The position numbers and the translations under genes are program-made. Shown one piece after another: positions 420-16,442 of a DNA stretch of 64,000 bases (position 1 is the first letter of the stretch; each line of letters starts with the position of its first letter). Source of the stretch: Candidatus Hodarchaeota archaeon (lineage in GTDB: Archaea; Asgardarchaeota; Lokiarchaeia; Sigyniarchaeales; SOKP01). Where the stretch lies: contig JBHLJY010000002.1 of NCBI GenBank assembly GCA_048887225.1, positions 96,001 to 160,000 on the forward strand, in the 5' to 3' direction. The notes beneath the pieces were generated by a model. The model was not told the origin of the DNA, ran no database searches, and worked only from the letters and a program-made list of their open reading frames with translations.

Positions 420-447
420 ATTATCCATTTAGTTCAATAGAAATGAA
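420..447. repeat. 28-bp site S1 (degenerate; right arm partly deleted)
   Basis: attatccattt-agttca-atagaaatgaa. Confidence 0.55.
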
Positions 448-484
448 TAAAAAAAATATTGTGAAATTAAAACTAAAATCAGTT

Positions 485-1579
485 TTACACATTTATTAGT
501 CTTGGTGGCGGGACAAATACATTTCTAAGACCTGTTCTGTTTAACGTCATTGATTCTTCGGGGCAGTGGTGGGCACAAATGCCGCATCCAATACATCTAT
601 CTTCATTTACAATGGCAACAGTATCTTCTAAATCAATTGCTTCCATTGGACATTTTTCAACACATGTGCCGCACCCTACGCAAGTTTCTTCATTCACTTT
701 TGCTAAATAGGAAGTTAATGTGTTCATTGCCGCTAATCCGCGATGATACAATTCTAAAGTACCACAGCAACATTTACAGCAACTGCAAATAGCATTTTCG
801 TTGTATTCGGGATCGTCAGGAAGATGAAATGCAGTGTGAACGAGTCCAAGGTTCTCAGATTCTTTGAGAGTATTTAACGCATCTTCTTTCGAGATCGGCT
901 TAATAAACTCGTGTTCTATTAGGAATCTAGCATATTTACCAAATATTAAGCAATTTTCTCTTGGGGCATCTAATTTACAAGGATCTGCAATGAGATCCTG
1001 TTTATGTCTGCAATAGCAAGTTCCAACACCGAAAGTATCATATTTTTCTAAAATTTTAGTTATTTCTTCGTATGGTAACACAATTTGTTGCTGAATATCA
1101 ACCTGTTCCTCGACGGGAACAATGCGTGTACCAGGTGGAGCGCTCTTAAATTGGGGTATGAATGTATCATAATTACTTTGAACCAGTTGCTTTAATTCGT
1201 CAAATAATTTCTCATATAAATTTGCTAACTTCTTTTCTTTTTCACTCGTTCCACCGCGCATTAATGTATACTCGAATATACCCGGTACGAAGGGATTAAG
1301 ATTATAAACCATGATACCTGTGTCTTCATCGGGAAAACTAGAAATTACTCCCTCATAACTTAAATCCTTTAGCATTTTTTCTAATTCATTTTCATCCAAG
1401 TCTGTTTTTTGTTTTATTCGATCAATGATAAGCGATGGTTTCTTAAATATCTGAAGAAATTTTGCTTGTTCCTCGGTTATAATAGTTTGCAATATCTCAA
1501 TAAGAGTGTTGCTAACAGGTAATACTATTCCTGCCTTTCCAATTAGTTGTATAAGTCTAGACCATATTTTTTCGGACAT
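485..1579 (-). CDS. 4Fe-4S dicluster (ferredoxin) domain protein with N-terminal HTH-like region
   Basis: CxxCxxCxxxCP twice at the C-terminus, plus CYCR and CSCCKCCC motifs. Confidence 0.85.
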   Translation of the reverse strand: MSEKIWSRLIQLIGKAGIVLPVSNTLIEILQTIITEEQAKFLQIFKKPSLIIDRIKQKTDLDENELEKMLKDLSYEGVISSFPDEDTGIMVYNLNPFVPGIFEYTLMRGGTSEKEKKLANLYEKLFDELKQLVQSNYDTFIPQFKSAPPGTRIVPVEEQVDIQQQIVLPYEEITKILEKYDTFGVGTCYCRHKQDLIADPCKLDAPRENCLIFGKYARFLIEHEFIKPISKEDALNTLKESENLGLVHTAFHLPDDPEYNENAICSCCKCCCGTLELYHRGLAAMNTLTSYLAKVNEETCVGCGTCVEKCPMEAIDLEDTVAIVNEDRCIGCGICAHHCPEESMTLNRTGLRNVFVPPPRLINV

Positions 1580-1694
1580 GATTATCTTACTTTTATTTAT
1601 TTTCAGCTTTGAATTTCTTATAATAAATTTGAAGTATGATTAATAATCAGTTATTTCAATTAAAATATTTTACATTTATGTGATTTCATTATTT

Positions 1695-1722
1695 ATCTTA
1701 TATCTTAGAACAAATATATGAA
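1695..1722. repeat. 28-bp site S2 (TAGAAC spacer)
   Basis: atcttatatct-tagaac-aaatatatgaa. Confidence 0.75.
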
Positions 1723-2227
1723 CATCTTTTAAAAAAAAATTACAATCTAACCTTAATGCCTTTTTTTTCTTGAGTGTAAAGTCTCTCCTCCCTATCAATT
1801 CTTGGGACAATATAGGATATCAGTAAAAAGATTATTGAAGCAAATATATAGATATCATTAATAAGCATTAACAAAGTCGCGATTAAACAAATTATGAATA
1901 TGGTTAATAATACTATTTTGTATCAATTTATTCTATTATAATTGGATAAATTATAATATTTTTTACATAAATTTTACTTCATTCTTTAAAATGGGTTAAA
2001 AAATTTAATTAAAATTAAGTTTGGAAAATTCAATATCACAATAAATTACTAGATGCCTTTAAATAACGCCTTGAAGATTTCATTAATTGAACTTTTTTAT
2101 TATACTTCGATCGAAAAGATTTAGCGATTGATTTATTCGAAAAAATTAATCAAGTTAAAAAATGTAAAAGAAATGAAAAAAACTAAGATTTATTAGTTTA
2201 GGTTATGGGTAAAATTTAAAATGCTAA

Positions 2228-3160
2228 GTGCCAAAAAAAAATGATAGAAAAATGAAAGCATCAAAAATAGTATTATACGCAATGTTGATGGTATCTTTAT
2301 TAATACCTTATATTGCCGTTGGATACGCTGCAGATAAACCTAGATATCTAGGAGTAAGTGAAGGGCAAGAGGTTATTTGGAAGACAGAATTCGATAAGGG
2401 ACCATTAGAGGACTATTTCGAAGATATTGGTTTATCTGAGTTAGTAGCTGAACAAAATGCAGATACATTTTTTTCTTGGTTTGATTGGGATGATGATGTA
2501 GAAGCTTGGAAAATTTATGTAGAAGACATTAGAGATGAGAAAGAATCTGATTGGGATAGCATTACTAATAGACTTGATGATGAAGATGATGTCAAACATG
2601 TAAAAATTCTAGTCAATATGTATGAAACAGAAGATTTAAGTGATGCTGAAGCTTGGGATGACTTTGATAAACTTGAATCATACACTATATATGAAGCCGA
2701 AGAAATAGTCTACGCTGAAATCGCATTATCAGGACTTCAAGATATCTTAGGTACGGGGCTTTTCGCTTTTGTTGTTCCAAAAAATCTTAAATGGAATAAA
2801 GTTGTTAATGAGATTGATGATTGGTTAGATGACAACAATTTGGAGGATATGAGGGCTGTCGATGATGTGGAAGTAAATTATTTTTTCCAAGATAAAGGCG
2901 TTGGTATAAAAACAAACAGAGAATCAACAACTGCGGGTGTTGAAGATTTCGATTCCGAATCAAGATACACAGATGATGGAATTCTTTATTATTATGAATA
3001 TGAATATGACGGGGACACAATCGCTAAATATGAATTGTCAATAGTTGGACAAAGTTTAGTTTACACCATAGAAAATTGGTGGTGGATTACTCTAATTGTT
3101 GTAGCTGCGATCGTTGGGGTAATTATCATTATAATAGTAATCATAAAGAAAAGGAAATAG
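2228..3160 (+). CDS. Acidic secreted, C-terminally membrane-anchored surface protein (start possibly 2252)
   Basis: Signal-peptide-like N-terminus, D/E-rich body, C-terminal TM helix followed by KKRK. Confidence 0.8.
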   Translation: MPKKNDRKMKASKIVLYAMLMVSLLIPYIAVGYAADKPRYLGVSEGQEVIWKTEFDKGPLEDYFEDIGLSELVAEQNADTFFSWFDWDDDVEAWKIYVEDIRDEKESDWDSITNRLDDEDDVKHVKILVNMYETEDLSDAEAWDDFDKLESYTIYEAEEIVYAEIALSGLQDILGTGLFAFVVPKNLKWNKVVNEIDDWLDDNNLEDMRAVDDVEVNYFFQDKGVGIKTNRESTTAGVEDFDSESRYTDDGILYYYEYEYDGDTIAKYELSIVGQSLVYTIENWWWITLIVVAAIVGVIIIIIVIIKKRK

Positions 3161-3165
3161 GAAAT

Positions 3166-4389
3166 GTGTCAAAAATCAGTATTGTTAACGTAAACGATTA
3201 CGGGGATATCCAACAATCGGTTGTAGCAGCAATTAAAATGATTGAATCAGATTTCCATTTTAATTTTCTTAATTCTAATTCAATTCTTTTAAAACCAAAT
3301 TTACTAGTCGCTAACAAGAATGCATGTACACAGCCAAGTTTTGTTGAGGGTATTGTTTCTTACCTGAAAGAAATAGGAGTTTCTATGGATAACGTAAATA
3401 TTGGAGATTCTCCAGGACAATATAAAACATCAGCCACCAATATTGCTAAGAAGATTGGCCTTTACGATATTTGTGATAAGTTGGGGATAAAATTTATTGA
3501 TTTTGAAGGAGATGCACCTATAAAAGAAGAAATTGAAGGTGCTTTAAGGATTAAAAAATATTATATAGCAAAAGCGGTTAAAGAATGTGATATTTTAATT
3601 AATTTGCCAAGATTAAAAACACATGCGGAGGCTACAATAACAGGTGCAATAAAAAATTATTGGGGGATAATTCCAGGGGGTATAAAGTCAAAATATCATT
3701 TATTAGGTAAAACACCAGACCAATTTGGGGAGGCTCTTACTGATAATTATTCCTGGGTCGTAAAAAACAAGCCAAATAGATTAATAGTATATGATTTACA
3801 CACAATAATGGAAGGATCAATGGGGCCTGTAGCAGGAACTATGAAAACTTGGAATTTAATCTTAACTGGTACTGATGAATTGGCATTAGATTTGGCAGCA
3901 TTAGAGATTGGTAAATTTAAAGGAATTCTTGTACCTCATTTGAAAATTGCTATTAAGAGAAATTTAGGAATCTATAATTTAAATGATATTGAATTTGTGG
4001 GAATGTCTTTAAAAGAAGCCAAAAACTGCACGCCTAAATTTAAAGGTCCAAATGAATTTTTTACAAAAATAACGAATTATCTAGGAAAGATAGGATATAA
4101 AATATTAAAAAAAATCCCTGTATTAAGCAAAACATCCTGTAGAAAATGTGGTCAATGCGCTCAAATTTGTCCCGCAAAGGCAATTTATTTCAAAGAGAAT
4201 CATTATCCTAATTATTTAAGAAAAAAATGTATTTCTTGCTTATGCTGCATGGAAATGTGTCCTCATCATGCTATTGTAGTAAGAACTAGAGGAATTAGTG
4301 GATTAAATTTTTTGTCTAAATCCGCTTTTAAGCTAGAAAAATTTATTTTAATTTTTTCAGCTATAATAGTAATGTCATTGTTTATTTAA
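3166..4389 (+). CDS. DUF362 family protein with C-terminal 2x[4Fe-4S] domain
   Basis: LLKPN, GDSPG, INLPRLKTH and GAIKN motifs, plus two ferredoxin motifs. The GTG start at 3166 avoids overlap with the upstream gene. Confidence 0.85.
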   Translation: MSKISIVNVNDYGDIQQSVVAAIKMIESDFHFNFLNSNSILLKPNLLVANKNACTQPSFVEGIVSYLKEIGVSMDNVNIGDSPGQYKTSATNIAKKIGLYDICDKLGIKFIDFEGDAPIKEEIEGALRIKKYYIAKAVKECDILINLPRLKTHAEATITGAIKNYWGIIPGGIKSKYHLLGKTPDQFGEALTDNYSWVVKNKPNRLIVYDLHTIMEGSMGPVAGTMKTWNLILTGTDELALDLAALEIGKFKGILVPHLKIAIKRNLGIYNLNDIEFVGMSLKEAKNCTPKFKGPNEFFTKITNYLGKIGYKILKKIPVLSKTSCRKCGQCAQICPAKAIYFKENHYPNYLRKKCISCLCCMEMCPHHAIVVRTRGISGLNFLSKSAFKLEKFILIFSAIIVMSLFI

Positions 4390-4404
4390 AATCAGGGGAT
4401 ATTT

Positions 4405-5373
4405 TTGAGTGTTTTATTAACAGGTGCCTTTGGAAATGTTGGATTAAGTACTTTAAAAAATTTGATTCATAGAAACCACAAAGTTAGGATTTTTGATATT
4501 GAGAGTTCTAAGAATCGGAAGATTGCTAAAAAATTTGAAGATAAGGTTGAAATAATTTGGGGGGATATACGAAATAAAGAAGATGTGGAAAAAGCTGTTT
4601 CAGGACAAGAAGTTGTAATTCATTTAGCAGCAATTATACCTCCACTCGCTGATAAACAGCCTAAATTTGCTGAAGAGGTAAATGTTGGAGGAATAGCTAA
4701 TCTTATTGAAGCAATGGAGAATCAAGTAAAAAAGCCTCGACTCATTTTCACATCTTCCATAGCTATTTATGGAGATCGACTTGAATCACCTTTTATAAAA
4801 GTCTCCGACCCTCCTAATCCTAATTCTGATGATGAGTATGGTAAACAAAAACTAAAATGCGAGAATCTTATTAAAAATTCCAGATTAGAGTGGTTAATTT
4901 TTCGCTTAACTTATATCGCTTCGCCGAATAAGCTCCAAATAGATGCTTTAATGTTTGATTTACCACTTGAAACATGCATAGAGATTTGTCACTACAAAGA
5001 TGTCGGATTTGCAATTGTCAATGCGATAGAAAATAACGAGGTCTGGGGTGAAACCATGAATATCGCAGGCGGAAAGAAATGTCGGATTATTTATAGAGAG
5101 TTAATTGCGAGGATGTTAGGTTTATTTGGCCTTGGGAATCATTATTTACCCTCGGAAGCTTTTAATAATTGTGGCTCCATCTGTGGATTTATGGATACTA
5201 GTAAAAGTCAAAGGCTTCTACAATATCAGAGACATACGCTTTCCGATTACTTTAATGAGGTGAAAAAAAAAGTTAGATTTTTGCGTTTTTTCGCAACATT
5301 AGTTCGACCTCTTGCTCGGAGATATATTATCGGAAAATCTCCTTATTATAAAGATAAACACAAACACAACTAA
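4405..5373 (+). CDS. NAD-dependent epimerase/dehydratase (extended SDR)
   Basis: TGAFGNVG, HLAA and YxxxK (YGKQK) motifs. Confidence 0.9.
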   Translation: MSVLLTGAFGNVGLSTLKNLIHRNHKVRIFDIESSKNRKIAKKFEDKVEIIWGDIRNKEDVEKAVSGQEVVIHLAAIIPPLADKQPKFAEEVNVGGIANLIEAMENQVKKPRLIFTSSIAIYGDRLESPFIKVSDPPNPNSDDEYGKQKLKCENLIKNSRLEWLIFRLTYIASPNKLQIDALMFDLPLETCIEICHYKDVGFAIVNAIENNEVWGETMNIAGGKKCRIIYRELIARMLGLFGLGNHYLPSEAFNNCGSICGFMDTSKSQRLLQYQRHTLSDYFNEVKKKVRFLRFFATLVRPLARRYIIGKSPYYKDKHKHN

Positions 5374-5409
5374 TTAAAATATATTAGCCTTAGAAATAAT
5401 ATTACTTTT

Positions 5410-5538
5410 ATGTTTTTCCCTGGACATACTCGGATTCGGCCTGCTGGCAAATCAGCTGAGGTTGGAAAATTATATCTGGAAGCAATGAAAAAATTTCTTA
5501 TTAAATCAAAAAAAGAAGAAAATCTTTCTAACATTTGA
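5410..5538 (+). pseudogene. Relic fragment paralogous to the gene at 1-270
   Basis: PAGKSAEVGKLYLEAMKKF here versus PAGKSEEVGKIYLNAMKNF; similarity then stops abruptly. Confidence 0.65.
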
Positions 5539-5542
5539 CGAG

Positions 5543-6106
5543 ATGAGAGAAAAAAACATAATTTTACCTTCCATAGCAACATCGCTTCCATTATGGTGGG
5601 ATAATTCAAGTACTCGAGCAGTAATTTGGAAAGATATTGGATGGCAAGTAGCAAAAGTTTCAGTAAATAAAGTTAATGATGTTTCTTATAAAATTGAGAA
5701 AATTACATTCATAAAAAGCGATGTGAAGAGAGAATTAGAAATTGAAGAAATAGAAGAAGCAAAGGAAAAAAGACCAGAATTAGAAGAAATTGAATTAGAA
5801 GCTCAACAAATAACGGAAATTAAAAAGAAGAAAATAGGTTCAGTTTTATCAGAAAGATTTTTCGGGATTGTCTCAATAGCAATAGGGATTTTAGCTTTTA
5901 TCTCACCAGCAAACATATTCACTTACATAGCAGTTATTAACATTTGTTTGGTAGGGATTTTAATTGGAACGTTTGGAACTAAATACGACGAAAAATCAAC
6001 TATGGCATATATAGGAGTAATTGTATGTTTGGCTGTGCTTTTTTATTGGATAATAAATATTTGGATATTTTTTATAGAATTAGCTGAAGCGTTAGCTGGA
6101 GATTAA
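5543..6106 (+). CDS. Hypothetical membrane protein (3 C-terminal TM helices)
   Basis: ORF track; charged linker followed by hydrophobic helices. Confidence 0.6.
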   Translation: MREKNIILPSIATSLPLWWDNSSTRAVIWKDIGWQVAKVSVNKVNDVSYKIEKITFIKSDVKRELEIEEIEEAKEKRPELEEIELEAQQITEIKKKKIGSVLSERFFGIVSIAIGILAFISPANIFTYIAVINICLVGILIGTFGTKYDEKSTMAYIGVIVCLAVLFYWIINIWIFFIELAEALAGD

Positions 6107-6205
6107 TATTCTAATTCAAGAATCTCTAAAAAATAATTGTTTGATAAATGGAATCCCTAAAAAGATCTAAATCTTTAATTTTTTTTATTTTTTTTTTGTT
6201 TGTCT

Positions 6206-6463
6206 TTATGGAGTCAATTCCTGTCTTATTTCTAACAACAAACTATCATTTTTTTTACTGTGTTTTCTGAAAGCAACTTTTTCAATAGTTTCAATCTTAA
6301 TTCTTGTTTTTTCTGCTATTTGTAATTTAAGCAGATTAACCATATTTTGATAAATTATTATCTCTGATAATTCATCCTTATTAAAAATCAATCCTAGAAT
6401 CTCCCCATCCATTTCTCTTTTTGTTATAATAATTTTTTCTTTTGTAATTTCAATACTTGACAT
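6206..6463 (-). CDS. Hypothetical protein
   Basis: ORF with GGAG RBS and T-rich downstream region. Confidence 0.6.
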   Translation of the reverse strand: MSSIEITKEKIIITKREMDGEILGLIFNKDELSEIIIYQNMVNLLKLQIAEKTRIKIETIEKVAFRKHSKKNDSLLLEIRQELTP

Positions 6464-6656
6464 TTAATATTCATCTCCCATTACAATAACTCCAATTAAA
6501 GTTAGGATTTCAATTATTTATTTTTTCCCTTAATATATTTACCTATCGACAAAAGCCAAATTTCAAATGAAAGATTTAAAATTGATCTCATCCATATTAT
6601 GAATTATTCTACGGAATTGTATTAAAATTATCAAATAATGTTGTGGTGATGTTCTA

Positions 6657-6869
6657 ATGTTATGGTGGGAGAATTATATTTATTTCTTTGTCATACTTTT
6701 TCTATCTCTGATAATCTTAGTAATGATTTTTGCTATTATTTATATTCAAAATGCGATGATGTCTAAACTTTTAAAGTTTTTTTTGATTTTTCTGGCGGGT
6801 TGTGGTATTCTTTTTAGTATTATATGGTTTACTATAGTTATAACAGAATGGTTTTCGGTGGTTATATAA
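6657..6869 (+). CDS. Small 2-TM membrane protein
   Basis: GGTGA RBS; two hydrophobic segments. Confidence 0.6.
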   Translation: MLWWENYIYFFVILFLSLIILVMIFAIIYIQNAMMSKLLKFFLIFLAGCGILFSIIWFTIVITEWFSVVI

Positions 6870-7003
6870 TGTCAGTTGAACAAATAAATAAAACGCTAGA
6901 TGATTAAAACCCTTACAAGAATATAAGGTGTTTAGCTTCTTTCAATTTATTTGATATTATCCAATCCTGAATAGTTGCAGTTTGTTCAGTATCTGCTTTT
7001 TCG

Positions 7004-7036
7004 ATTAAATCATATATCTGTTCTAAGATATAAGAT
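7004..7036. repeat. Site S3 (core 7009-7036), left member of a perfect 33-bp inverted repeat
   Basis: attaa-atcatatatct-gttcta-agatataagat is the exact reverse complement of 7629-7661. Confidence 0.9.
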
Positions 7037-7088
7037 AGAAAAGAAAAAAAAGAAGAATTTAAAATTTAAAATATCTCTTTATGTACTT

Positions 7089-7481
7089 TTATTTTCGCTT
7101 TTGTATCCAAATATGAATTCCTAATATTGTAAAGAAAACATTTATAATTACGCTTAATAAAAAAGCACCTATTGGGATATTATAAAGAACAAGACCGATA
7201 ATATTATTGATTATGCTGAAAATTTGCGCTATTATGCCAAATAAGACCCAGCTCTCGATCTTGTCCCAGTTATCTAAGTCCTTATACAGCGTTATTACAA
7301 CTATTGCCCAAGTTAAATATAGACCTCCTACCCCTCTAGTAGATTGTGGATCCCAGAAAGGCCAATTAAATGCTGCACCCGAAGATTCAGGAGATATAAA
7401 CCACCATAAGCCAAAAATAATCAATACAATTATACCTGCAATCCAAAATATTTTAAGCTCTTTTTCAACATCTAATGCCAT
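7089..7481 (-). CDS. 4-TM small membrane protein, paralog 1
   Basis: MALDVxKELKI...LDNWxKIExW...GIHIxIQKRK shared with three other copies; GGAGG RBS. Confidence 0.9.
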   Translation of the reverse strand: MALDVEKELKIFWIAGIIVLIIFGLWWFISPESSGAAFNWPFWDPQSTRGVGGLYLTWAIVVITLYKDLDNWDKIESWVLFGIIAQIFSIINNIIGLVLYNIPIGAFLLSVIINVFFTILGIHIWIQKRK

Positions 7482-7534
7482 TGTTTTCCCTCCAATTATT
7501 TCTTTTTATTGAATTTTTTGATTTTCTTTTTTTT

Positions 7535-7615
7535 ATTAGATATTCCACCCATAAATTTATGGATTAAGTAAAGAATTGACAAATGAGTATTTAAAGATTT
7601 AACTTCTTTGTAATA
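7535..7615 (-). promoter_or_regulatory. Repeated promoter module copy 2 (operator 7549-7562, TATA 7588-7595)
   Basis: Perfect palindrome CCATAAATTTATGG about 26 bp downstream of TTTAAATA, with A-rich BRE. Confidence 0.75.
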
Positions 7616-7628
7616 AACGACAAAAATA

Positions 7629-7661
7629 ATCTTATATCTTAGAACAGATATATGATTTAAT
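7629..7661. repeat. Site S4 (core 7629-7656), right member of the 33-bp inverted repeat
   Basis: atcttatatct-tagaac-agatatatgat-ttaat. Confidence 0.9.
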
Positions 7662-7735: not shown

Positions 7736-7763
7736 ATTATTTATTTAGTTCAAGATATATGAT
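7736..7763. repeat. 28-bp site S5
   Basis: attatttattt-agttca-agatatatgat; ~50 bp of right flank shared with S6. Confidence 0.8.
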
Positions 7764-7821: not shown

Positions 7822-8565
7822 CTAATTTCTTTCAATTTTCTCAAATCCTTTTTTAATTTTAATAATTAGTGTCTTTTCAAAATACTCTCCCTCTATTAAG
7901 ATCTTAAAGGGGAAATCTTCTGATTTAAAGAATTCGGTAAAATATTTTAACCAATAAATACTATAGCGTCTATTTTGATGATGTTTAAAAGTTAGTAAAA
8001 ATTGATCAGTGTTAACATATTCGATATCAATTTTGTAAAAGTAATTAGCTATTACCCAGACTTTTTTGATGGACTTTAGTATCTCTTCTATTTCTAAGTC
8101 TTTAATTTGTTTTTTATTATACCATATGATTAAATCAAAAGCTTCATTTTTCTGGATAGGTCGATTTAATTCATCCTCAGGAGCTTCCGCAGCAGCAATT
8201 AATTGATTAAAATCAGTTTTTCCAATTAGCATCATTTGCATCTCGCTTCGAGCGTTACACCACCATCTAAGTTTAGATTTTTTCTTTTTCTTTGACAATT
8301 TATAATAAAATTTGACAGATTCCTCAAATAATTTAAATTGATTCTCAAATTCAGGCAAAAGTTTTTCGATTATATTATGTGTTTTTAAATCCATAGAAAG
8401 ATATTGAGAATAGAGTTCAATAGCTTTTTCGATTATAGTATTCATTTTACAATTTTGCTGATCCTTTAGCGTGTCGATTAAATTCCTTATTTCACTTCTT
8501 ACATTAACATATACAGATTTAGAAGGTTCGGATAGAGTTTTTTTAGCCATTATTATTAGCACCAA
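7822..8565 (-). CDS. Putative transcriptional regulator, ribbon-helix-helix-like N-terminus plus ligand-binding-like C-terminal domain
   Basis: SVYVNVRSEIRNLIDTLK...MNTIIEKAIELY fits a beta-alpha-alpha RHH pattern. Confidence 0.55.
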   Translation of the reverse strand: MVLIIMAKKTLSEPSKSVYVNVRSEIRNLIDTLKDQQNCKMNTIIEKAIELYSQYLSMDLKTHNIIEKLLPEFENQFKLFEESVKFYYKLSKKKKKSKLRWWCNARSEMQMMLIGKTDFNQLIAAAEAPEDELNRPIQKNEAFDLIIWYNKKQIKDLEIEEILKSIKKVWVIANYFYKIDIEYVNTDQFLLTFKHHQNRRYSIYWLKYFTEFFKSEDFPFKILIEGEYFEKTLIIKIKKGFEKIERN

Positions 8566-8749
8566 AAAATTTTATTTATCTATATAAATAATGGATATTT
8601 ATATATATATATACATGCTTTTTTTATAATATATATTGATTATTTGATTATCATATATATCGAAAGATTTAAATATGCTATTATATATCTATATATCAAA
8701 AATCTAAAAAAAATATTGTAAATAAAAAATAATGGGGTTAATATAAATT

Positions 8750-9106
8750 ATGAAAGTTTTAAAAACAACTATTAGTATTAAAAAAATCAATATAGATTTA
8801 GTTTTTTGTCCTGCAAAAAAATTGTATTGGGAATATCTTATATGTAAAACTTGTCATTGCTTTAAATCAAATTATAATTCATACATTGAATGTAATTTTA
8901 AGAAAAGTGAATTTTCAAGATCTAAATCTTCAAATAATACAACAGAAAGTTTTGCAAAAGGTATATTAGTGCAGAATTTTAGTAAAAATGCAGAAACTAA
9001 AAAAAACATGGAAATGGTTATTAATGAGCTTTCAAACAATTTCAAAAGAGATAGACTTCGTAAACAACTAAAAAAAGTCCCAATTGTAATATCTCAGAAG
9101 ATATAA
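8750..9106 (+). CDS. Hypothetical protein with 4-Cys putative metal site
   Basis: CP-x10-CxxC...C motif; GGGG RBS. Confidence 0.6.
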   Translation: MKVLKTTISIKKINIDLVFCPAKKLYWEYLICKTCHCFKSNYNSYIECNFKKSEFSRSKSSNNTTESFAKGILVQNFSKNAETKKNMEMVINELSNNFKRDRLRKQLKKVPIVISQKI

Positions 9107-9185
9107 ACTTCTTAAAAATTTCTGTTTTAATCAATATTTTTAACAAAAAAAAAAGAAGAATTTAAAATTTAAAATATTTCCTTGT

Positions 9186-9581
9186 TCATTTTTCTTTGCG
9201 CTTTTGTATTAAAATATGAATGCCTAATGCAGCGAAGAAAATAGCTATAATTAAATTTATTATGCCAATTGGGTTAGTAGTGTAAAAAATGATGCTAATA
9301 ATAAATGAAATTAATCCCAGAATATTTACTATTACTGAAAAAATTATCCAATTCTCAACCTTCTCCCAGTTATCAAGTTCCCTTAACACTTTTAATGCAA
9401 TTAATGCCCAAGCTATGAAAACTCCTCCTAAATATCTACCTGCAGCTGGATCAAATAAAGGCCAATTATGCACCGCAACCCAAGACTCATAAGAAATAAA
9501 GAGCCATAAGCCATAATAGATAAGTACTATAAAACCCAAAATAAAATTAATTTTAAGCTCTTTTTTAACATCTAATGCCAT
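9186..9581 (-). CDS. 4-TM small membrane protein, paralog 2 (true start 9581)
   Basis: Homology with the other paralogs begins at MALDV. The longer ORF call reads through the promoter module. Confidence 0.9.
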   Translation of the reverse strand: MALDVKKELKINFILGFIVLIYYGLWLFISYESWVAVHNWPLFDPAAGRYLGGVFIAWALIALKVLRELDNWEKVENWIIFSVIVNILGLISFIISIIFYTTNPIGIINLIIAIFFAALGIHILIQKRKEK

Positions 9582-9634
9582 TATTTTCCCTACAATTATA
9601 TTTTTTTTATTGAATTTTTTGAATTTTATTTTTT

Positions 9635-9741
9635 TATTAGATATTTCACCCATAAATTTATGGAGTAAGTAATAAATTGACAAATAAGTATTTAAAGCTT
9701 TAACATTTTTGTAATAGGCGATTTAGAAACAAAATCAAAAA
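9635..9741 (-). promoter_or_regulatory. Repeated promoter module copy 3 (operator 9650-9663, TATA 9689-9696)
   Basis: Near-identical to the other copies. Confidence 0.75.
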
Positions 9742-9769
9742 ATCATATATTTAGTTCAAGATATAAAAT
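9742..9769. repeat. 28-bp site S6
   Basis: atcatatattt-agttca-agatataaaat. Confidence 0.85.
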
Positions 9770-9930: not shown

Positions 9931-11088
9931 CTAAAAATCTATTGGCCTCCCCTCATAAGCATATTCGAATATTTTTCGAAAATCTTCTTCTGAGGGACTT
10001 CTTGGATTAATGATTTTTGTGAAATCTGCATCTGCAAATGATACTAATTTTTCAATGTTTCGTTCCCATTCTTTTTTAGATATCCCAAAATCTTTTATGG
10101 TAATAGGAACATTAACTTTTTTTAAGAAATCTCGAACAAAATTAGCCAATGTTTTTGTAGCATCGTCATTAATTAATACATTTATATTATTCAAAATATT
10201 TTCATATTTTTTTTCACTTGTAGGTTTGTTAAATTCAATAATATAAGGCAACATTATGCTTACTGAGATACCATGTGGAATGTGATAAACAGCACCTATA
10301 GAATGACCACACGCGTGAGCAATAGCACAAACAGAATGACCAAGAGCTAATCCAGCAATAGAAGCGGCATAATGTACCTTCGCACGTATATTAATATCAT
10401 TTGCACCTTCTCCAACAGCAAGAGGTAAATAATTGATTATCAATTTAATTGCATGCAAATTCAAGGCATCAGTAAAATCTGAAGCTATATTACTATAAAT
10501 TCCTTCAATAGCATGCGTCAATGCATCCAAACCAGTTGAAGCGGTAAGTTTTGGTGGCATTTTTAGAGGCAACTTTGGATCAATGATTATCATTTCAGGA
10601 ACTAACTCTATAGAAGCAATTGCACCTTTTCTATTAGTTTCGCTGTCTGTGACTCCCGCTCCACCTGTACTTTCTGCTCCCGTACCAGACGTAGTTGGTA
10701 TTAATATTAATTTAGATTTTTGCCCTAATTTAGGGACTGTTCCTAAAATACATTCATGTAGTTTTTTATCTTCACATTCATAAAGAAAATATATCCCTTT
10801 TGCCGCATCCATTACAGAACCGCCCCCAAATCCGATAATTAAATCTGGTTTATATTCACGTGCAACCTCACCACCTTTGGATATAGTAATATCCATAGGA
10901 TCTGGTTCAATCTCATCAAAAAAAATAAAATCTTTTTTACTAAGAAATTTTGAGATTAAATTTCCATGTATCTCATTAATAACTTTATCAGTAACAACCA
11001 AAACTTTATTTTGGCTCAAATTTTTTAATTCTTTTAGAGATCCTTTTCCATAATAAATAATCGGTAATTTAATCATTCTCACAGTCAT
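9931..11088 (-). CDS. Iron-containing alcohol dehydrogenase
   Basis: GGGSVMDAAK, PTTSGTGAE, DALTHAIEG, HACGH and HG motifs. Confidence 0.95.
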   Translation of the reverse strand: MTVRMIKLPIIYYGKGSLKELKNLSQNKVLVVTDKVINEIHGNLISKFLSKKDFIFFDEIEPDPMDITISKGGEVAREYKPDLIIGFGGGSVMDAAKGIYFLYECEDKKLHECILGTVPKLGQKSKLILIPTTSGTGAESTGGAGVTDSETNRKGAIASIELVPEMIIIDPKLPLKMPPKLTASTGLDALTHAIEGIYSNIASDFTDALNLHAIKLIINYLPLAVGEGANDINIRAKVHYAASIAGLALGHSVCAIAHACGHSIGAVYHIPHGISVSIMLPYIIEFNKPTSEKKYENILNNINVLINDDATKTLANFVRDFLKKVNVPITIKDFGISKKEWERNIEKLVSFADADFTKIINPRSPSEEDFRKIFEYAYEGRPIDF

Positions 11089-11224
11089 CTTTATACTCCT
11101 GTCGTTTTTTAATTTCTTTAAATTTAATAATTTAATATGAATTTCATGACTATGAAGTAAGTATGAATAATATAAAAATATTTAACTTTTTTGTTAAAGG
11201 GCGATTTAGAATAAAAATCAAGAA

Positions 11225-11252
11225 ATTATCTGTTTAGTTCAAGATATATGAT
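11225..11252. repeat. 28-bp site S7, with shared left flank 11180-11224
   Basis: attatctgttt-agttca-agatatatgat. Confidence 0.8.
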
Positions 11253-11397: not shown

Positions 11398-11610
11398 TTA
11401 GGGGTAAAAACCTGGGGCACCATCTTTAAATCTTTCTGAAGCGGGTTCACCTCCAATCCCCCAATGAGTTCTGGGGATTTCGTGTACAATTACTTCAACA
11501 GCATGCTGAGGTACGCCTAAATTAACAAAAACTTTAGTTATATTTTCAATTACTACTTTTACTCTTTCTTCTCCAAAACCTTTCCAAACATGAACATGAA
11601 CTATTGGTAT
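11398..11610 (-). CDS. 4-oxalocrotonate tautomerase family protein, ATA start (not in ORF track)
   Basis: Manual translation: (M)PIVHVHVWKGFGEERVKVVIENITKVFVNLGVPQHAVEVIVHEIPRTHWGIGGEPAS...; Pro-1 and the WGIGG motif are present. Confidence 0.85.
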   Translation of the reverse strand: MPIVHVHVWKGFGEERVKVVIENITKVFVNLGVPQHAVEVIVHEIPRTHWGIGGEPASERFKDGAPGFYP

Positions 11611-11703
11611 TTTATTTCAACTCTAAATTTATTTTTAAATTTAATCTATCTTATTTAATGTTAAAATTCTCTTTATAATATTTCCTTTAAAATTTATACT
11701 TAT

Positions 11704-13221
11704 TTAACTTTTTTCTAATATTAAGTCAGCTGCTAAACAACCTGTGTACATAGAAACGGGATAACCTCCTAAAAATGGCTCTAAAACCGAATATATCCCC
11801 ACCATTAATAAATTTTGTATTGGGGTCTCAATGAGCAATTTTGTTGTTACTCTTATTTTTTTCATATCTCGAGACCACCCTGCAACAGAACCATTATATC
11901 TTTGACCCCAATCTCTATAAGTTAAGGGTGTCGCAATTTCAATTTTTTGAATCGAGGATGAAAGTCCGGGTAATATTTGCTCGACAACTTTTATAAGTTT
12001 TTCTGCTAAAGCATTTTTATATTCTTTATACCCCTCTTTTCTCATTTTTTCTCCAATTCTCCATTTTTCAAAATGTTTATAGGGCATAGTAACCCTTATA
12101 ACTAAGCTTTTCATTCCCTCTGGGGCGAAATTCGGCGATTTATTCGACCATAGACAAATCTCAATCTCTTTATTTTCAAAATCATCGAGGTCATCATCTT
12201 CAGATTTTGCGATTTTTGCTCGATAAAATAAATGGTCTGCTCTCATTCGACTAAAATCAATCTTATCGGAGTCCACACCTAAATAAACACAAAACTCAGA
12301 ACCAGTATAGGCTGTATTTTTAATAATATCAAGGTATGATTTAGCAATCATATTTGGATCAATTAAATCTAAGTATACCTTTTTATAATCAGCATTTGCA
12401 ACGATCCAATGCGCTCTGAAAAATTTTCCTTCTTCAGTTTCTACACCGATGGCTCTACTATTTTCAATTATTATCTTTATTACAGGTGAGTTCAACTTTA
12501 TTTCGCCATTATTTTTCTGAATATATTCACTAAGTAATTCGTTAATCCCATGTATCCCGCAAGAAGGAAACCAGATGCCTTCAATAGACATAATATTCCA
12601 CATAAATGCAAGATGCACCATATTCATAATGGGCTCAAAGGTACCTTGACTCCCCAATAATCTTTTTAAAGAATCATTCTCTAGATACTTTTCTAATAAA
12701 ATTTTTGATGATTTTTCTTTATACCTTTCATATAATTCATACTCCTCTCTATGTATTTTCAATAGCAATTCTTCTGCTAATTCACGCTTTTTACCTATCA
12801 AATATTCTGGATGCCATTTATTTACTTGACTTATCACTTTCAATAATTTGTCAAACTCTAAAAAGAATTTTTCAATACCAATCCGATCTTCTAGATATAA
12901 TTCTTTTAATGCTTCTTTAAAATTATTCCACTCTTGAGAATATATTATATCAATTTTAGGAGTTATTAATTGAAAATTACTTCTTTGAAATGAAATATTT
13001 TGATTAATCCCTATATCATCTAATATTTCTTTTACCAAATTAGGAAAGCTAAATGACAAAGGACCCATTGGAAAATAAAAATTTCCCCTTCTAAATATGT
13101 GACTCGTGCCTCCTATATGATGAATTTTCTCTAAAATTAAAACTTTCTTACCTTTTGATGCTAATTTTGCCGCGCATGTTAGCCCCCCAACACCCGCTCC
13201 GATAATTATTACATCATACAT
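11704..13221 (-). CDS. Phytoene dehydrogenase/retinol saturase-like FAD-dependent oxidoreductase
   Basis: GAGVGGL dinucleotide fold, LEK..HIGG, ATPLTY and a C-terminal GGYP motif. Confidence 0.85.
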   Translation of the reverse strand: MYDVIIIGAGVGGLTCAAKLASKGKKVLILEKIHHIGGTSHIFRRGNFYFPMGPLSFSFPNLVKEILDDIGINQNISFQRSNFQLITPKIDIIYSQEWNNFKEALKELYLEDRIGIEKFFLEFDKLLKVISQVNKWHPEYLIGKKRELAEELLLKIHREEYELYERYKEKSSKILLEKYLENDSLKRLLGSQGTFEPIMNMVHLAFMWNIMSIEGIWFPSCGIHGINELLSEYIQKNNGEIKLNSPVIKIIIENSRAIGVETEEGKFFRAHWIVANADYKKVYLDLIDPNMIAKSYLDIIKNTAYTGSEFCVYLGVDSDKIDFSRMRADHLFYRAKIAKSEDDDLDDFENKEIEICLWSNKSPNFAPEGMKSLVIRVTMPYKHFEKWRIGEKMRKEGYKEYKNALAEKLIKVVEQILPGLSSSIQKIEIATPLTYRDWGQRYNGSVAGWSRDMKKIRVTTKLLIETPIQNLLMVGIYSVLEPFLGGYPVSMYTGCLAADLILEKS

Positions 13222-13224
13222 AGA

Positions 13225-13332
13225 TTTTAGATAAATTCACCCATAAATTTATGGATTAAGTAAAGAAGGGAGAAATTAGTATTTAAAGATTTAACTTTTT
13301 GGTAATAGGCGATTTAGAATAAAAATCAAGAA
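13225..13332 (-). promoter_or_regulatory. Repeated promoter module copy 4 (operator 13241-13254, TATA 13280-13287), fused directly to the oxidoreductase ATG
   Basis: ...CCATAAATTTATGGGTGAatttatctaaaatctATG. Confidence 0.75.
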
Positions 13333-13360
13333 ATCATATATTTAGTTCAGGATATAAGAG
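13333..13360. repeat. 28-bp site S8
   Basis: atcatatattt-agttca-ggatataagag. Confidence 0.85.
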
Positions 13361-13405
13361 AGAAATGAAAAAAAAAGAAGAATTTAAAATTTAAAATATT
13401 TCCTT
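13361..13405 (-). terminator. T-rich terminator region shared by the four 4-TM paralogs
   Basis: aaaaaaaagaagaatttaaaatttaaaatat on the + strand also at ~7044, ~9145 and ~16450. Confidence 0.55.
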
Positions 13406-13413
13406 ATTTAGTT

Positions 13414-13809
13414 TTATTTGCGCTTTTGTATTATAATATGAATACCTAGTATAGCGAAAAAGAGATTCACAATCATAGCTATTATGGTACCAGCAGAAAA
13501 TACATTATACATAATAATGCCAATAAGTTCAGCGATGAAAATTAAAATTTGTGCCATTACAGCAAATAACACCCATTCCTCAATCTTCTCCCAGTTATCA
13601 AGTTTCTTTAATAATCTTATTACAATTATCGCCCAAGATATAAAAACTGCTCCTACAACTCTAGCAGTAACTGGAGCAAAATAGCCTGCAGTACCTAATA
13701 TTGCATAATAAGATTCATAAGAAATAAAAAACCACAAGCCGTAAATGAGCAATACTATTAGACCTGCAATCCAAAATATTTTAAGTTCTTTATCAACATC
13801 TAATGCCAT
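13414..13809 (-). CDS. 4-TM small membrane protein, paralog 3
   Basis: Paralog family homology; GGAGG RBS. Confidence 0.9.
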   Translation of the reverse strand: MALDVDKELKIFWIAGLIVLLIYGLWFFISYESYYAILGTAGYFAPVTARVVGAVFISWAIIVIRLLKKLDNWEKIEEWVLFAVMAQILIFIAELIGIIMYNVFSAGTIIAMIVNLFFAILGIHIIIQKRK

Positions 13810-13864
13810 CGTTTTCCCTCCAATTAATTTTTTTTATTGAGATTTTTAAATTTCTATTTTTTAT

Positions 13865-13970
13865 GTTAGACATTTCACACATAGATTTAAGGATAATTTA
13901 AAATATTGATAAATAAGTATTTAAAGATTTAACTTTTTTGTAATGGGCGATTTAGAAAGAAAATCAAGAA
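13865..13970 (-). promoter_or_regulatory. Repeated promoter module copy 5 (degenerate operator 13879-13892, TATA 13918-13925)
   Basis: acatagatttaagg replaces ccataaatttatgg; TATA and BRE intact. Confidence 0.65.
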
Positions 13971-13998
13971 ATTATCTATTTAGTTCAAAATATAGGAT
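13971..13998. repeat. 28-bp site S9
   Basis: attatctattt-agttca-aaatataggat. Confidence 0.8.
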
Positions 13999-14021
13999 TT
14001 TTTAATACTTAAAATTTAAAT

Positions 14022-16376
14022 ATGTTTTACAAAGTTAAATTCTTATATAAGAAATATACATATGACGAGTTTTTAACAAAATTGAAAAGTTCGAAAAAAG
14101 CAATCTTTGTAGCTATAGCATTCTTATTTAGTGGTTTGATTGTTTTTCTATTTACTCCTACTGAACGACGAGTACTTCACGATCAAAATTCGGAAATCAA
14201 GATTGAAGAAGAAATAGCTAGAGATGCAGGATCAGGAACCATTTACTATGTCGATAGCATCAACGGGGATGACTCTAATCCCGGAACTTCTGGTACTCCA
14301 TGGAAAACAATACGTAAAGTCAATTCAATGACGTTCAAGCCAGGAGATTCAATATTATTCAAAAGGGGCGGAAGTTGGAGAGAGTATTTAGATCCTCAGA
14401 ATGGTAATAGCACGGATAAAATCACATACGGAACGTACGGAACGGGTCCTAAACCAAAATTTATTGGCGCTTTATTAAGAAATGAGACGATTGACTGGTT
14501 CGATATGGGCGGGAACATTTGGTCTACGAATAGTTCAAAAGAGGTTGGTTCTCAATTACTTTCGAATCCCAGCTTCGAATCCGGCACTTCAGGGTGGGTT
14601 TTCTACAATCACACAGATACTAGAGCAGAGGGTTACCAAGATACTATTCGATATGATTCTGGAAGTGCGAGTTATGGTATAAACTGTACAACAAGAAGCA
14701 TTTATCCTTATGATATCTCATTTAGAGCAACAGATATAATAGTAATACAAGGATGTCTTTACAATTTCTCATTTCGAGCGAAATGTACGCAACCATTTAA
14801 CATTAGCGCCATTGATATAATGAATTATACTGGTTCTGATACTATTAGATTAACTTCTCACACCACTAATCAAACTCCTACGATTACAACAACATGGAAA
14901 ACGTATCACGTTCTATTTAGGGTAGATAAATCATGCACTACAGGGTGGATAATATTTGCTCTTGGAGATGTTTTGCCTGAGGGGTCCATATTTAATATTG
15001 ATACATGTTCCTTCAAGATGCTTCAAAATGACACTCTGTTTTATGCTGATATCGGGAATCTAATTTTTAACAATGAGCAGGAGTGTGGTCTAAAAGTGTG
15101 GAATGCGACGGATTTAGATTCTCAGGGCGAATTCTGGTTTGATGAGGATAATTGGTTTGTAAAGATGTATTCAGTTGATAATCCAGCGTCGGTTTATTCA
15201 GATGGAATAGAAGTTTGCATGGGACGCCACATTATTGATGAAGAGGGGAAGCATGACATTATTTATGAGAATTTGCATTTGATGTACGGTGGTGCTCATG
15301 GAATTGGTGGAGGGAACACATACAATATCACAATACGATACTGTGATTTCTCTTATATTGGGGGAAGTGAACTGCCAAGCACTCTTTACAACAATATTCG
15401 ATTTGGAAATGCAATCGAATTTTGGTCAAATGCTAGCGATAATTTAGTAGAACATTGTAAGATATGGGAAATCTATGATGCGGGGATAACCAATCAAGGG
15501 ACCTACAGTGGCAATAAGCAATATAATCTTATATACAATAATAATACAATCTGGAATTGTGAGATGTCGTTCGAAATTTGGAATAACCCCGCTAATTCTA
15601 TTATGCATAATATTTATATCGAGAATAATACCTGTTATGACGCTGGTTCTGGATGGGGCAATAGCCAGCGATATGATCCTAAAGGTACTCATTTATATCT
15701 TGGATGGAATACGGCAAATACCATAGATATATTTATCCGGAATAACATTTTTTACGAGGTAAATATGTCCTGTCTATATATCCACAATGAAACGTGGTCT
15801 CAATATGCTTTAGGCAACCTCACTTTAGATTATAATATGTATTATTCTACAGCCGCAAATTATATGATTTATTATCAGAATGATTTGTATTTATATGATG
15901 ATTTCTCACAATATCAAGCTGACACTGGGAAAGATGCTCATTCGTATGCTGGACCACTGCCAAAAGTTAAGAACCTGGAAATAACTCCGAGTAATGTTTA
16001 TGTAGGGAATAAGGTTACTATTCAATTCGAAGTTGATGATATTATTGGTCTTAAAAACGTGTCTATTGAGATTTTTGGAAAAAATCACACATTAAAAGCA
16101 TATTCTGGTGTGTATAACTATTCTTGGACTGCTAATAATAGTGGAACTGTCAATTATAAGATACATATGGAAGATTTGACGGGTTATAATAATTCGATGA
16201 GCCGATCTATATCGGTAAATATCTATATCCCGCCAAGCGGCGATGATGATGATAATGACGATGATGATGAAGAAGCAATAATTCCATTCGGAAATTATTA
16301 TCTGCTATTTGCGGTTCTTGCTATGCTCTCTTTAATTGTAATTATAAAGCGAAAAGCAATTTTTAAAGAGTTATAA
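14022..16376 (+). CDS. Cell-surface protein: pectin-lyase-like right-handed beta-helix with inserted CBM4/9-like domain, acidic linker, C-terminal TM sorting signal
   Basis: YYVDSINGDDSNPGT..PWKTI, PGDSILFKRG, LLSNPSFESG, N-rich beta-helix repeats, poly-D linker and IPFGNYY-TM-KRK. Start may be TTG ~14081. Confidence 0.8.
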   Translation: MFYKVKFLYKKYTYDEFLTKLKSSKKAIFVAIAFLFSGLIVFLFTPTERRVLHDQNSEIKIEEEIARDAGSGTIYYVDSINGDDSNPGTSGTPWKTIRKVNSMTFKPGDSILFKRGGSWREYLDPQNGNSTDKITYGTYGTGPKPKFIGALLRNETIDWFDMGGNIWSTNSSKEVGSQLLSNPSFESGTSGWVFYNHTDTRAEGYQDTIRYDSGSASYGINCTTRSIYPYDISFRATDIIVIQGCLYNFSFRAKCTQPFNISAIDIMNYTGSDTIRLTSHTTNQTPTITTTWKTYHVLFRVDKSCTTGWIIFALGDVLPEGSIFNIDTCSFKMLQNDTLFYADIGNLIFNNEQECGLKVWNATDLDSQGEFWFDEDNWFVKMYSVDNPASVYSDGIEVCMGRHIIDEEGKHDIIYENLHLMYGGAHGIGGGNTYNITIRYCDFSYIGGSELPSTLYNNIRFGNAIEFWSNASDNLVEHCKIWEIYDAGITNQGTYSGNKQYNLIYNNNTIWNCEMSFEIWNNPANSIMHNIYIENNTCYDAGSGWGNSQRYDPKGTHLYLGWNTANTIDIFIRNNIFYEVNMSCLYIHNETWSQYALGNLTLDYNMYYSTAANYMIYYQNDLYLYDDFSQYQADTGKDAHSYAGPLPKVKNLEITPSNVYVGNKVTIQFEVDDIIGLKNVSIEIFGKNHTLKAYSGVYNYSWTANNSGTVNYKIHMEDLTGYNNSMSRSISVNIYIPPSGDDDDNDDDDEEAIIPFGNYYLLFAVLAMLSLIVIIKRKAIFKEL

Positions 16377-16414
16377 TACTTTTTTTTCTTTTTCTTAATT
16401 CAGTCTAAAATTGA

Positions 16415-16442
16415 ATCATATATTTAGTTCAAGATATAAGAG
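16415..16442. repeat. 28-bp site S10
   Basis: atcatatattt-agttca-agatataagag, lying between two convergent genes. Confidence 0.85.

Follow-up and report, generated by a model that had tools for sequence, protein, structure and literature searches.

Palindromic sites at the left end of the window

The window, that is, the whole 64-kb stretch of DNA analysed here, begins with a series of genes separated by copies of a 28-bp palindrome, and the question raised by this locus is whether the palindrome is a joint at which genes are exchanged or a repeat of some other kind. The initial annotation had counted ten such sites and none in the remaining 47 kb. All ten are real, nine of them fit the proposed pattern with 0-3 mismatches exactly where they had been placed (9-10 seen in the window versus 0.00-0.09 expected by chance from shuffles), and there are zero matches past position 16442. 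The exception is S1 (420..447, plus strand), which had been taken for a full 28-bp site and is instead a decayed copy, with the left arm and AGTTCA spacer intact and terminator flank 1 directly after; with nine bases missing from its right arm, it is not matched at three mismatches.

Here, the spacer census of seven AGTTCA and three GTTCTA/TAGAAC copies was reproduced. The GTTCTA (V-type) sites are S2 (1695..1722, minus strand), which lies between divergent genes, S3 (7009..7036, plus strand), a perfect pattern match past the T-run terminator of a membrane-protein gene, and S4 (7629..7656, minus strand), which is inverted with respect to S3 and located upstream of that same gene's promoter module (gene at 7089-7481). 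The remaining AGTTCA (A-type) sites, all on the plus strand, are S5 (7736..7763), S6 (9742..9769), to which a full promoter module is attached, S7 (11225..11252), S8 (13333..13360), S9 (13971..13998), between divergent genes, and S10 (16415..16442), between two convergent terminators with a promoter on neither side.

As had been proposed, each site consists of two inverted arms of about 11 bp around a 6-bp spacer, which is the 11-6-11 geometry of Xer/dif-type core sites. In the V-type sites, the arms agree at 10 of 11 positions, with enrichment at the 6-bp spacing only, while in the copies joined to promoter module A the left arm is weak (7/11 palindromic positions). A search with the arms that was blind to the spacer found that arm pairs with a 6-bp gap carry almost exclusively AGTTCA or GTTCTA. 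A one-base deletion, compensated by a one-base insertion so that the arm spacing is preserved, separates these two main classes, and position-by-position variation of the asymmetric spacer is no greater than that of the arms. As a single strand, the site folds at 0 to -4 kcal/mol, not better than shuffles, and forms no stable hairpin, which fits a dimer that would bind the duplex.

The palindrome could also be a selfish non-autonomous repeat of the MITE or REP/BIME type, made of two abutted terminal inverted repeats or of one palindromic unit and spread by a now-absent transposase, with the cassette look a by-product of intergenic preference. We consider this origin unlikely. Consistent with it, the palindrome lengthens to about 19-6-19 with B-type and type-2 flanks, and decayed and half copies are present. 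Arguing against it are the lack of a stable hairpin, the presence of both arms in every isolated copy, and the arm's occurrence outside sites at two chance positions only, with no insertion sequence found that ends in these arms.

Distribution in the genome and among relatives

The sites had seemed special to this locus, but a wider scan found about 56 copies across the genome in about eight clusters (37 at <=2 mismatches). The array also continues past the left edge of the window, with six further sites immediately beyond it (C2:90791-95870). All true copies are intergenic, the flanking genes being tandem in 33 cases, convergent in eight, and divergent in eight, and contig ends are enriched in sites (6/56, p ~0.001). 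Such clustering in arrays does not suit a MITE or REP-type repeat, for which dispersed copies would be the pattern, though the expansion in one species does, since the nine same-genus species have 0-3 copies each. Four of these nine have no copy at <=2 mismatches, and in other genera nothing exceeds the control pattern. Five other species of the genus nonetheless keep a 21-mer core with 0-2 mismatches, at protein identities of about 75-80% where the flanks of the core are no longer alignable.

The low counts in relatives also bear on a further reading, namely that the site derives from, or serves as, the genus's chromosome-dimer resolution site (dif), its many copies being dif-like satellites as on Acinetobacter plasmids. 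Besides the 11-6-11 geometry, this reading can draw on relatives with 1-3 copies and on the best-assembled of them (G001), whose one copy has convergent genes on either side, as has the dif site of Thermococcus (PMC11840125). With four of nine genomes lacking a copy, and with the arm comparison described below, we regard it as quite improbable.

Genes and flanking modules

That each interval holds whole genes was borne out in part. Most intervals are single-gene units, but S2-S3 (1695-7009) is a block of at least six genes (2228..6869, plus strand; DUF362/Fer4 protein, NAD-dependent epimerase, and unknowns) rather than a single cassette. The cargo of S1-S2 is a 4Fe-4S ferredoxin-domain protein (485..1579, minus strand), that of S6-S7 an iron-containing alcohol dehydrogenase (9931..11088, minus strand), and that of S9-S10 a 784-aa surface protein with a CBM_4_9 domain (14022..16376, plus strand), all three as previously assigned. 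In S7-S8, the expected oxidoreductase is present as an FAD amine-oxidase-type enzyme (11704..13221, minus strand); the expected tautomerase ORF was not found, there being just a 44-aa TTG frame between S7 and the oxidoreductase. S3-S4 encodes a 130-aa four-helix membrane protein (7089..7481, minus strand) with paralogues at 13414-13809 and 16494-16898, while S5-S6 (7822..9683) encodes three proteins: one of 247 aa whose N-terminus, by eye, is ribbon-helix-helix-like, a Cys-rich one of 118 aa on the plus strand, and a membrane protein of 155-165 aa.

Attached to 21 copies in the genome is a conserved module of about 140 nt (module A), a putative promoter and leader judging by its sequence. The reference copy (9600..9741, minus strand) reads, from the site, about 24-47 nt, a BRE/TATA-like box, a 14-nt leader palindrome, and an A-rich tail, and leads into the ribosome-binding site and ATG belonging to the gene itself. 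The module recurs, in full or in part, at 310-416, 7503-7615, 11200-11221, 13236-13329, 13827-13967, and, with no site, 16909-17022. One of two T-run modules, putative terminators, is often attached to the palindrome as well; flank 1 (13361..13400, minus-strand T-run) recurs at 7044-7074, 16450-16480, and, again with no site, 9146-9178.

These flanks reassort freely. The exchange of flanks noticed earlier is confirmed, in that the left module is followed variously by flank type 1, flank type 2, or a unique flank, and at S3, S8, and S10 the terminator flank comes after a different left flank each time. Genome-wide, 10 of the 12 possible combinations of left (A, B, other) and right (1, 2, 3, other) flanks are present, and therefore exchange has taken place across the 21-28 bp core. 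Exchange points are found within the 140-nt module A too. In the variable parts of the genome, single accessory genes are bordered by the 28-base palindrome, which is usually part of a portable terminator-palindrome-promoter unit. A mosaic of this sort, with other short conserved motifs, is also BIME-like (PMC3333891, PMC2817692).

The same observations suit a mobile regulatory cassette resembling the promoter-early stem-loop (PeSL) units of phages, in which the repeated unit would be the whole terminator-palindrome-promoter block of about 200 nt. Genes would then be shuffled by homologous or microhomology-mediated recombination between blocks, and the palindrome, not being a recombinase site, would serve as operator or upstream activating site for a transcription factor that binds as a dimer, or would insulate one unit from the next. 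We hold this to be a real possibility, short of an even chance. The promoter/leader module at 21 sites, the T-run modules at many, and the exchange points inside module A all point this way, as does the ribbon-helix-helix-like protein encoded in the array; phage PeSL units behave exactly so (PMC2839356), and promoter reuse before unrelated genes is documented (PMC3575422). Against it, 35 of the 56 sites have no module A and eight lie between convergent gene ends with a promoter on neither side, the distance from site to TATA box changes with context (about 26 versus 47 nt), the non-palindromic spacer is as strongly conserved across species as the arms, and flanks reassort over just 21-28 bp of shared sequence where the long module is absent. 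For the same reasons of promoter context, and with its two spacer classes only, the palindrome does not behave as a plain transcription-factor operator, for which the initial annotation had foreseen a fixed promoter distance and a variable spacer.

Breakpoints between genomes

Seven stretches containing about 29 sites were compared with the closest relative (G002; about 95% identity, with about 40% of the bases aligning). Not one of these sites is in collinear DNA, and the sites are restricted to accessory DNA that this relative lacks. For a host regulatory site, as the PeSL-like explanation would have it, the absence of any orthologous copy with both flanks collinear at 95% identity is odd. 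Homology stops within an arm or right at the edge of the site when G005 is compared with G006, L039 with C6, and L037 with C23 (at 98% identity), as well as at a gene-end duplication on C7; in L040, it breaks on both sides of one site. Several of the breaks fall <=10 nt from the site edge, and the same cassettes occur in other orders on metagenome contigs. DNA has been swapped repeatedly at or beside the palindrome.

Other comparisons place the module boundaries 35-110 nt from sites. The crossover could not be placed in the spacer, and the partner alleles at several of the edge breaks have no recognisable site, which simple site-by-site exchange does not predict. Moreover, two clean insertions between G000 and G002 are bordered by direct repeats that lie 35-100 nt beyond the sites. 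Both sites are internal to the 4.7-kb insertion (C4:52657-57391), with a 20/22 direct repeat 86 and about 75 nt outside them, and the second, of 2 kb, has the same layout, its repeat being imperfect and about 16 nt long. Array islands, among them the 5.65-kb one with the C7 array, have their ends elsewhere than at sites, and at the position of the C7 island contig C20 of G002 carries a different, site-free insert. Repeat-bounded indels of this kind favour recombination between PeSL-like blocks, as does the C7 junction, which resembles a Campbell-type integration via the duplicated 160-nt gene end. For a MITE, these comparisons are unfavourable, since neither target-site duplications at the palindrome edges nor alleles differing by the palindrome alone were found.

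Search for a recombinase and comparison with dif

The initial annotation had seen no recombinase in the window, and this extends to the whole 412-kb contig, on which there is no tyrosine recombinase. A PF00589 search gave no match on this contig (C2) or in any site-bearing locus, though a truncated integrase gene is found at a contig end 5.5 kb from the C7 array. This lack of a linked recombinase counts in favour of the PeSL-like explanation. Besides two extra integrases, the genome encodes XerA (C25:18132-19061), which is the sole tyrosine recombinase common to the genus, a point that a dif origin can also claim. Neither a Y1/HUH transposase (PF01797) nor a serine recombinase was found in the genome, which further weakens the case for a REP-type repeat mobilised by a RAYT.

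That the arms depart from the dif consensus holds true, as TAA-N6-TTA is absent and the bases adjacent to the spacer differ. The dif sites of P. abyssi and T. kodakarensis share the 7-mer GATATAA with the arms, but its polarity relative to the spacer is opposite, and both features count against a dif origin. A scan for canonical dif in this AT-rich genome returned no clear candidate either way.

Proposed cassette system

The palindrome is a real cassette-like boundary element, and taken together the locus looks like an undescribed gene-cassette shuffling system, whose enzyme and joining point we infer. Site-specific recombination at the palindrome is our leading reading, with a probability of roughly 40%; shuffling by homologous recombination between regulatory cassettes is nearly as likely. 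We count in its favour the excess of sites over chance, the conserved spacer, the flank combinations, the absence of sites from collinear DNA, the site-edge breaks, the intergenic position in every gene-orientation context, the reordered metagenome cassettes, the contig-end enrichment, and the lack of a fold. Counted against it are the repeats outside the sites, the C7 island ends, the exchange inside module A, the inverted dif arm polarity, the absence of a recombinase gene from site-bearing loci, and the weak left arm. The integron-like shuffling by a recombinase acting in trans that was first suggested accordingly stands as regards cassette layout, spacer classes, and flank assortment, and is weakened by the missing linked recombinase and the several breakpoints outside sites.

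Under site-specific recombination, the palindrome would be recognised by a protein and would join the units of a gene-cassette system specific to the lineage, a proposal that we make just as tentatively. Each unit would be a self-contained expression cassette that, in the direction of the gene, comprises a half-site, the promoter/leader module, one gene (rarely a few), the T-run terminator module, and a second half-site, and such units would accumulate in accessory islands. A tyrosine recombinase encoded elsewhere, for which the XerA orthologue is a candidate, would bind both 11-bp arms on double-stranded DNA as a dimer and exchange strands across the 6-bp asymmetric spacer. Sites with like spacers (AGTTCA or GTTCTA) could then recombine, such that cassettes are excised, inserted, or reordered, and the longer modules on either side may undergo ordinary homologous recombination, adding to the shuffling. 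More speculative still is the general form of this idea, an Asgard (Loki-type) platform that does without an integron integrase and uses a 28-bp duplex site, with XerA or another tyrosine recombinase acting in trans, to stack self-expressing single-gene cassettes.

Comparison with known systems

Were this reading true, the system would be the equivalent, on an archaeal chromosome, of pdif modules and integrons, with cassettes captured, stacked, and reordered. In the pdif modules of Acinetobacter plasmids (PMC6449649, PMC13141974), as here, many 28-bp 11-6-11 sites flank discrete modules of accessory genes that recur in different contexts, and no dedicated recombinase is linked, for which reason the host Xer is presumed to act in trans. 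In contrast, the present system is chromosomal and archaeal, its array sites are mostly direct rather than alternating, its arms are dissimilar to archaeal dif, a putative promoter and terminator module is shared, and its breakpoints are in several cases outside the sites.

Integrons and CALIN arrays, including those of archaea (PMC9668308), likewise have mostly single, small, co-oriented accessory genes between conserved repeats, vary among close relatives, and include GNAT enzymes and small uncharacterised proteins in their cargo. Here, however, IntI and attI were not found beside the site arrays, and the repeat, which has no single-stranded fold and, by inspection, no GTTRRRY/RYYYAAC pair, does not resemble attC. 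Moreover, whereas integron cassettes are promoterless, the units appear to carry module A or an upstream region of their own.

REP/BIME elements with their RAYT (PMC3333891, PMC2817692) share with the present site an extragenic palindromic unit, mosaic motif combinations, and species-specific copy number, but this site is AT-rich and non-folding, occurs also between divergent genes, comes with no Y1 transposase, and has one gene per array interval. In promoter reuse by putative mobile promoters (PMC3575422), a highly similar promoter region similarly precedes unrelated genes in one genome, though here the putative promoter is one module of a boundary unit with palindrome and terminator, tied to structural variation. 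Lastly, the PeSL cassettes of T4-type phages (PMC2839356) are short conserved intergenic promoter and terminator units beside non-essential genes in hyperplastic regions, and genomes that are 95% identical differ at these units by insertions, deletions, and replacements; the present locus likewise has what appear to be conserved intergenic promoter and terminator units, with indels between close relatives at them. It differs from them in its cellular archaeal host, in the order of terminator, palindrome, and promoter, in its T-run terminator, and in a palindrome that forms no stable stem-loop, is conserved between species, and is found on its own as well.

Palindromic sites in the window and across the genome

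A pattern search recovered nine of the ten 28-bp sites (S1 to S10, window 420-16442) proposed in the initial annotation, each at its proposed position and with 0-3 mismatches, for an expectation in the window of 0.00-0.09 matches from dinucleotide shuffles. The remaining one, S1 (position 420), did not match the pattern owing to a nine-base deletion in the right arm; the left arm, the spacer, and the flanking modules are intact. Past position 16442, the window gave zero matches, as had been stated, and the spacer census (AGTTCA in seven, GTTCTA in three) and the claimed exchanges of flanks between sites proved correct as well. The proposed gene content needed amending, in that no tautomerase ORF was found between S7 and S8, and the S2-S3 interval is a multi-gene block.

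The sites are limited to this locus within the window but not within the source genome (Loki-type Asgard, 3.27 Mb in 49 contigs; G000), of which the window is C2:96001-160000. A genome-wide scan revealed about 56 true sites; the spacer is AGTTCA in 41 of them and GTTCTA in 15. These cluster on contigs C1, C2, C4, C6, C7, C10, and C28, with the C2 array extending by six further sites to the left of the window, and for six of the 56 a contig end is no more than 700 nt away (p ~0.001). Nine other species of the genus have 0-3 copies each; in the remaining genera of the same family and order, the scan gave no site at two mismatches and stayed near control level at three. Moreover, a 19-mer scan across GTDB found archaeal matches in the same genus only, together with single matches in bacterial MAGs that are taken to be chance, and exact-protein look-ups gave matches in the source sample only.

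Architecture of the boundary unit

All true sites are intergenic, being located between tandem (33), convergent (8), or divergent (8) genes. Twenty-one copies are joined on the left to a conserved ~140-nt module (module A). On the gene strand, a BRE/TATA-like box comes first after the site; then follow a leader containing a 14-nt palindrome, an A-rich tail, and finally the ribosome-binding site and start codon of the gene itself. The 14-nt palindrome is perfect at window 9650-9663 and in every module A copy, lies in the predicted 5' leader of this portable candidate promoter, and constitutes a second operator-like element, separate from the 28-bp site. The opposite side of the site often carries one of two short modules (right flanks 1 and 2) with T-runs on the gene strand, these being the predicted terminators of the preceding gene. 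A third right flank type recurs three times; that it is simply a duplicated transporter gene end was ruled out, as the duplication begins ~80 nt from the site. Among the 12 possible combinations of left and right flank types, ten are present, and where a B-type left flank meets a type-2 right flank the palindrome is extended to ~19-6-19. The intergenic regions at C6:96006-96211 and C6:102090-102172 are made up of module relics, namely part of flank 2, the distal portion of module A, and a degenerate site, from which it seems evident that modules decay in place.

When the spacer was left free in the search, arms at 6-bp spacing almost always enclosed AGTTCA or GTTCTA, two classes that are a one-base deletion plus a one-base insertion apart, with the arm spacing kept. 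Spacer positions are no more variable than arm positions. Here, we noticed good arms around a third spacer, ATCGAA, in a metagenome contig (L038:700-760), and the spacer GTTCGA in the site at C6:99971; there are thus additional, infrequent spacer classes.

Neither the site nor the extended palindrome gave any single-strand structure beyond that of shuffles, and an Rfam search returned nothing relevant. Y1/HUH transposase and serine recombinase families are absent from the genome. A MITE or REP-like repeat is named here as an explanation of rather low probability. A transposon with half-sites as its ends was ruled out, because isolated site copies always have both arms.

Comparison with relatives and metagenomes

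The closest relative, G002, is ~95% identical to G000 in core DNA. In seven G000 stretches of 14-20 kb, ~40% of bases align to G002, and none of the ~29 sites therein lies in DNA collinear with G002. The C7 array is inside a 5.65-kb insertion, in place of which the relatives G006 and G009 and one G002 contig have an 18-49-nt gap. At the site common to G005 and G006, the right flank is 95% identical and homology begins at the left arm, the left flanks being unrelated. In metagenome contigs 98% identical to G000, homology ends a few bases from the site edge or inside an arm, and other metagenome contigs have the same cassettes in different orders. One G002 contig of 6.3 kb combines, as a mosaic, pieces that are found on four G000 contigs, and may be a mis-join at repeats. 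Four sequencing runs, as Logan contigs broken at repeats, gave joints with 22-60-nt sides that may be other genomic module copies and so carry no information on circles or deletions. In G002, two versions of one locus were observed, the first with a GNAT-like insert (G002:C20:1-1150) and the second empty (G002:C49:17560-17800), so that this MAG mixes strains and the spot is an insertion hotspot even without sites.

We regard the element as real and lineage-specific, a unit that bounds single-gene expression cassettes in accessory DNA, with exchange of flanking DNA at the palindrome or next to it. Our favoured reading, to which we give a tentative probability of roughly 40%, is that a tyrosine recombinase acting in trans recombines the duplex palindrome site-specifically, because the asymmetric spacer is conserved, arm spacing is preserved, only the core is conserved across species, reassortment occurs across only 21-28 bp, and breakpoints fall at site edges.

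The cleanest occupied-versus-empty pair, C4:52657-57391 (in the order site, surface-protein gene, site), is flanked by a 20/22 direct repeat positioned 86 and ~75 nt outside its sites, and G002 has the repeat once and no site. A module from the left end of this insertion is seen again at C6:97358, where a site, flank 2, and a similar short core immediately precede it, an arrangement that looks attP-like. In a second insertion, of 2 kb, the site lies ~40 nt inward from one end, and there is an imperfect ~16-nt repeat. The ends of the C7 island do not coincide with sites, and a 160-nt gene end is duplicated there, which looks like Campbell-type integration. Exchange points occur within module A too, and in several edge-break cases the partner allele is without a recognisable site. 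A simple crossover within the spacer does not account for these cases. Nearly equal to the favoured reading, though still doubtful, is a regulatory cassette like the promoter-early stem-loop (PeSL) cassettes of T4-type phages, with repeats that would be shuffled by homologous recombination and the palindrome as operator.

Candidate recombinases and dif

Three tyrosine recombinase genes are found in G000. These are a XerA orthologue (C25:18132-19061) found across the genus, an integrase on C24, a contig of mobile-element look, and a gene at G000:C7:125454-126020 (L002:19434-20000) that is cut off at the C7 end, 5.5 kb from the C7 cassette array. The last is beside a gene that, by eye and from its N-terminus, is uvrC-like, and is only distantly related to XerA and the C24 integrase. 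In G000:C24:1-9000, the integrase gene at the contig start is accompanied by a 48-aa ORF that is duplicated and by numerous small ORFs, and the contig looks like a mobile element or provirus. A tblastn search with the three recombinases against all retrieved loci gave no match beside any site, whether in relatives or metagenomes.

Derivation of the site from dif we consider improbable. The experimentally defined archaeal dif has a 7-mer in common with the site arms but in opposite polarity, its TAA-N6-TTA signature is absent from the site, and a scan of the AT-rich G000 for canonical archaeal dif gave no clear candidate. A ~30-nt repeat with no relation to the site is present several times in a 500-nt intergenic region 1 kb from xerA (G000:C25:20090-20600); a more distant metagenome contig, ~79% identical, instead has a 28-bp site in the orthologous position.

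Cassette cargo

Site-to-site intervals hold mostly a single gene. Three small paralogous families recur as cargo, namely a 131-aa four-helix membrane protein, a ~108-aa protein with weak DUF3303 likeness, and a 129-155-aa membrane protein. The remaining cargo is mutually unrelated (Fe-ADH, FAD amine oxidase, ferredoxin-domain protein, CBM surface protein, beta-propeller protein, GNAT, DUF998 protein, and a 1349-aa surface protein). An identical C-terminal anchor tail, followed by the same T-rich flank, was seen on two otherwise different surface proteins, the CBM protein (window 14022-16376) and the beta-propeller protein (L001:16099-17502; C2:92099-93502), and a similar tail flank is in front of the C10:49605 site. 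Inside the array, window 7822-8565 (minus strand) encodes a 247-aa protein with no Pfam match. Its N-terminus resembles a ribbon-helix-helix DNA-binding domain, and the protein is a candidate for binding one of the palindromes.

Significance and relation to known systems

Asgard archaea have large genomes of mosaic make-up, on which the gain and reshuffling of accessory genes bear, as they do on gene flow across the prokaryote-eukaryote boundary. Should the palindrome be a recombinase site, a novel type of cassette platform would be added, together with an archaeal promoter-terminator unit that is compact and portable; if not, the element is still a clear cellular parallel of phage PeSL shuffling modules, and it would serve as a practical marker of the variable regions of such genomes. 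Canonical integrons have been described from Asgard MAGs (PMC9668308), and the searchable papers gave no description of a palindrome-bounded array of self-expressing cassettes in Asgard archaea. The element does not pass the tests that define integrons, REP/RAYT elements, MITEs, or canonical archaeal dif, and the systems most similar to it in working are the pdif modules of Acinetobacter plasmids and the PeSL cassettes (PMC2839356).
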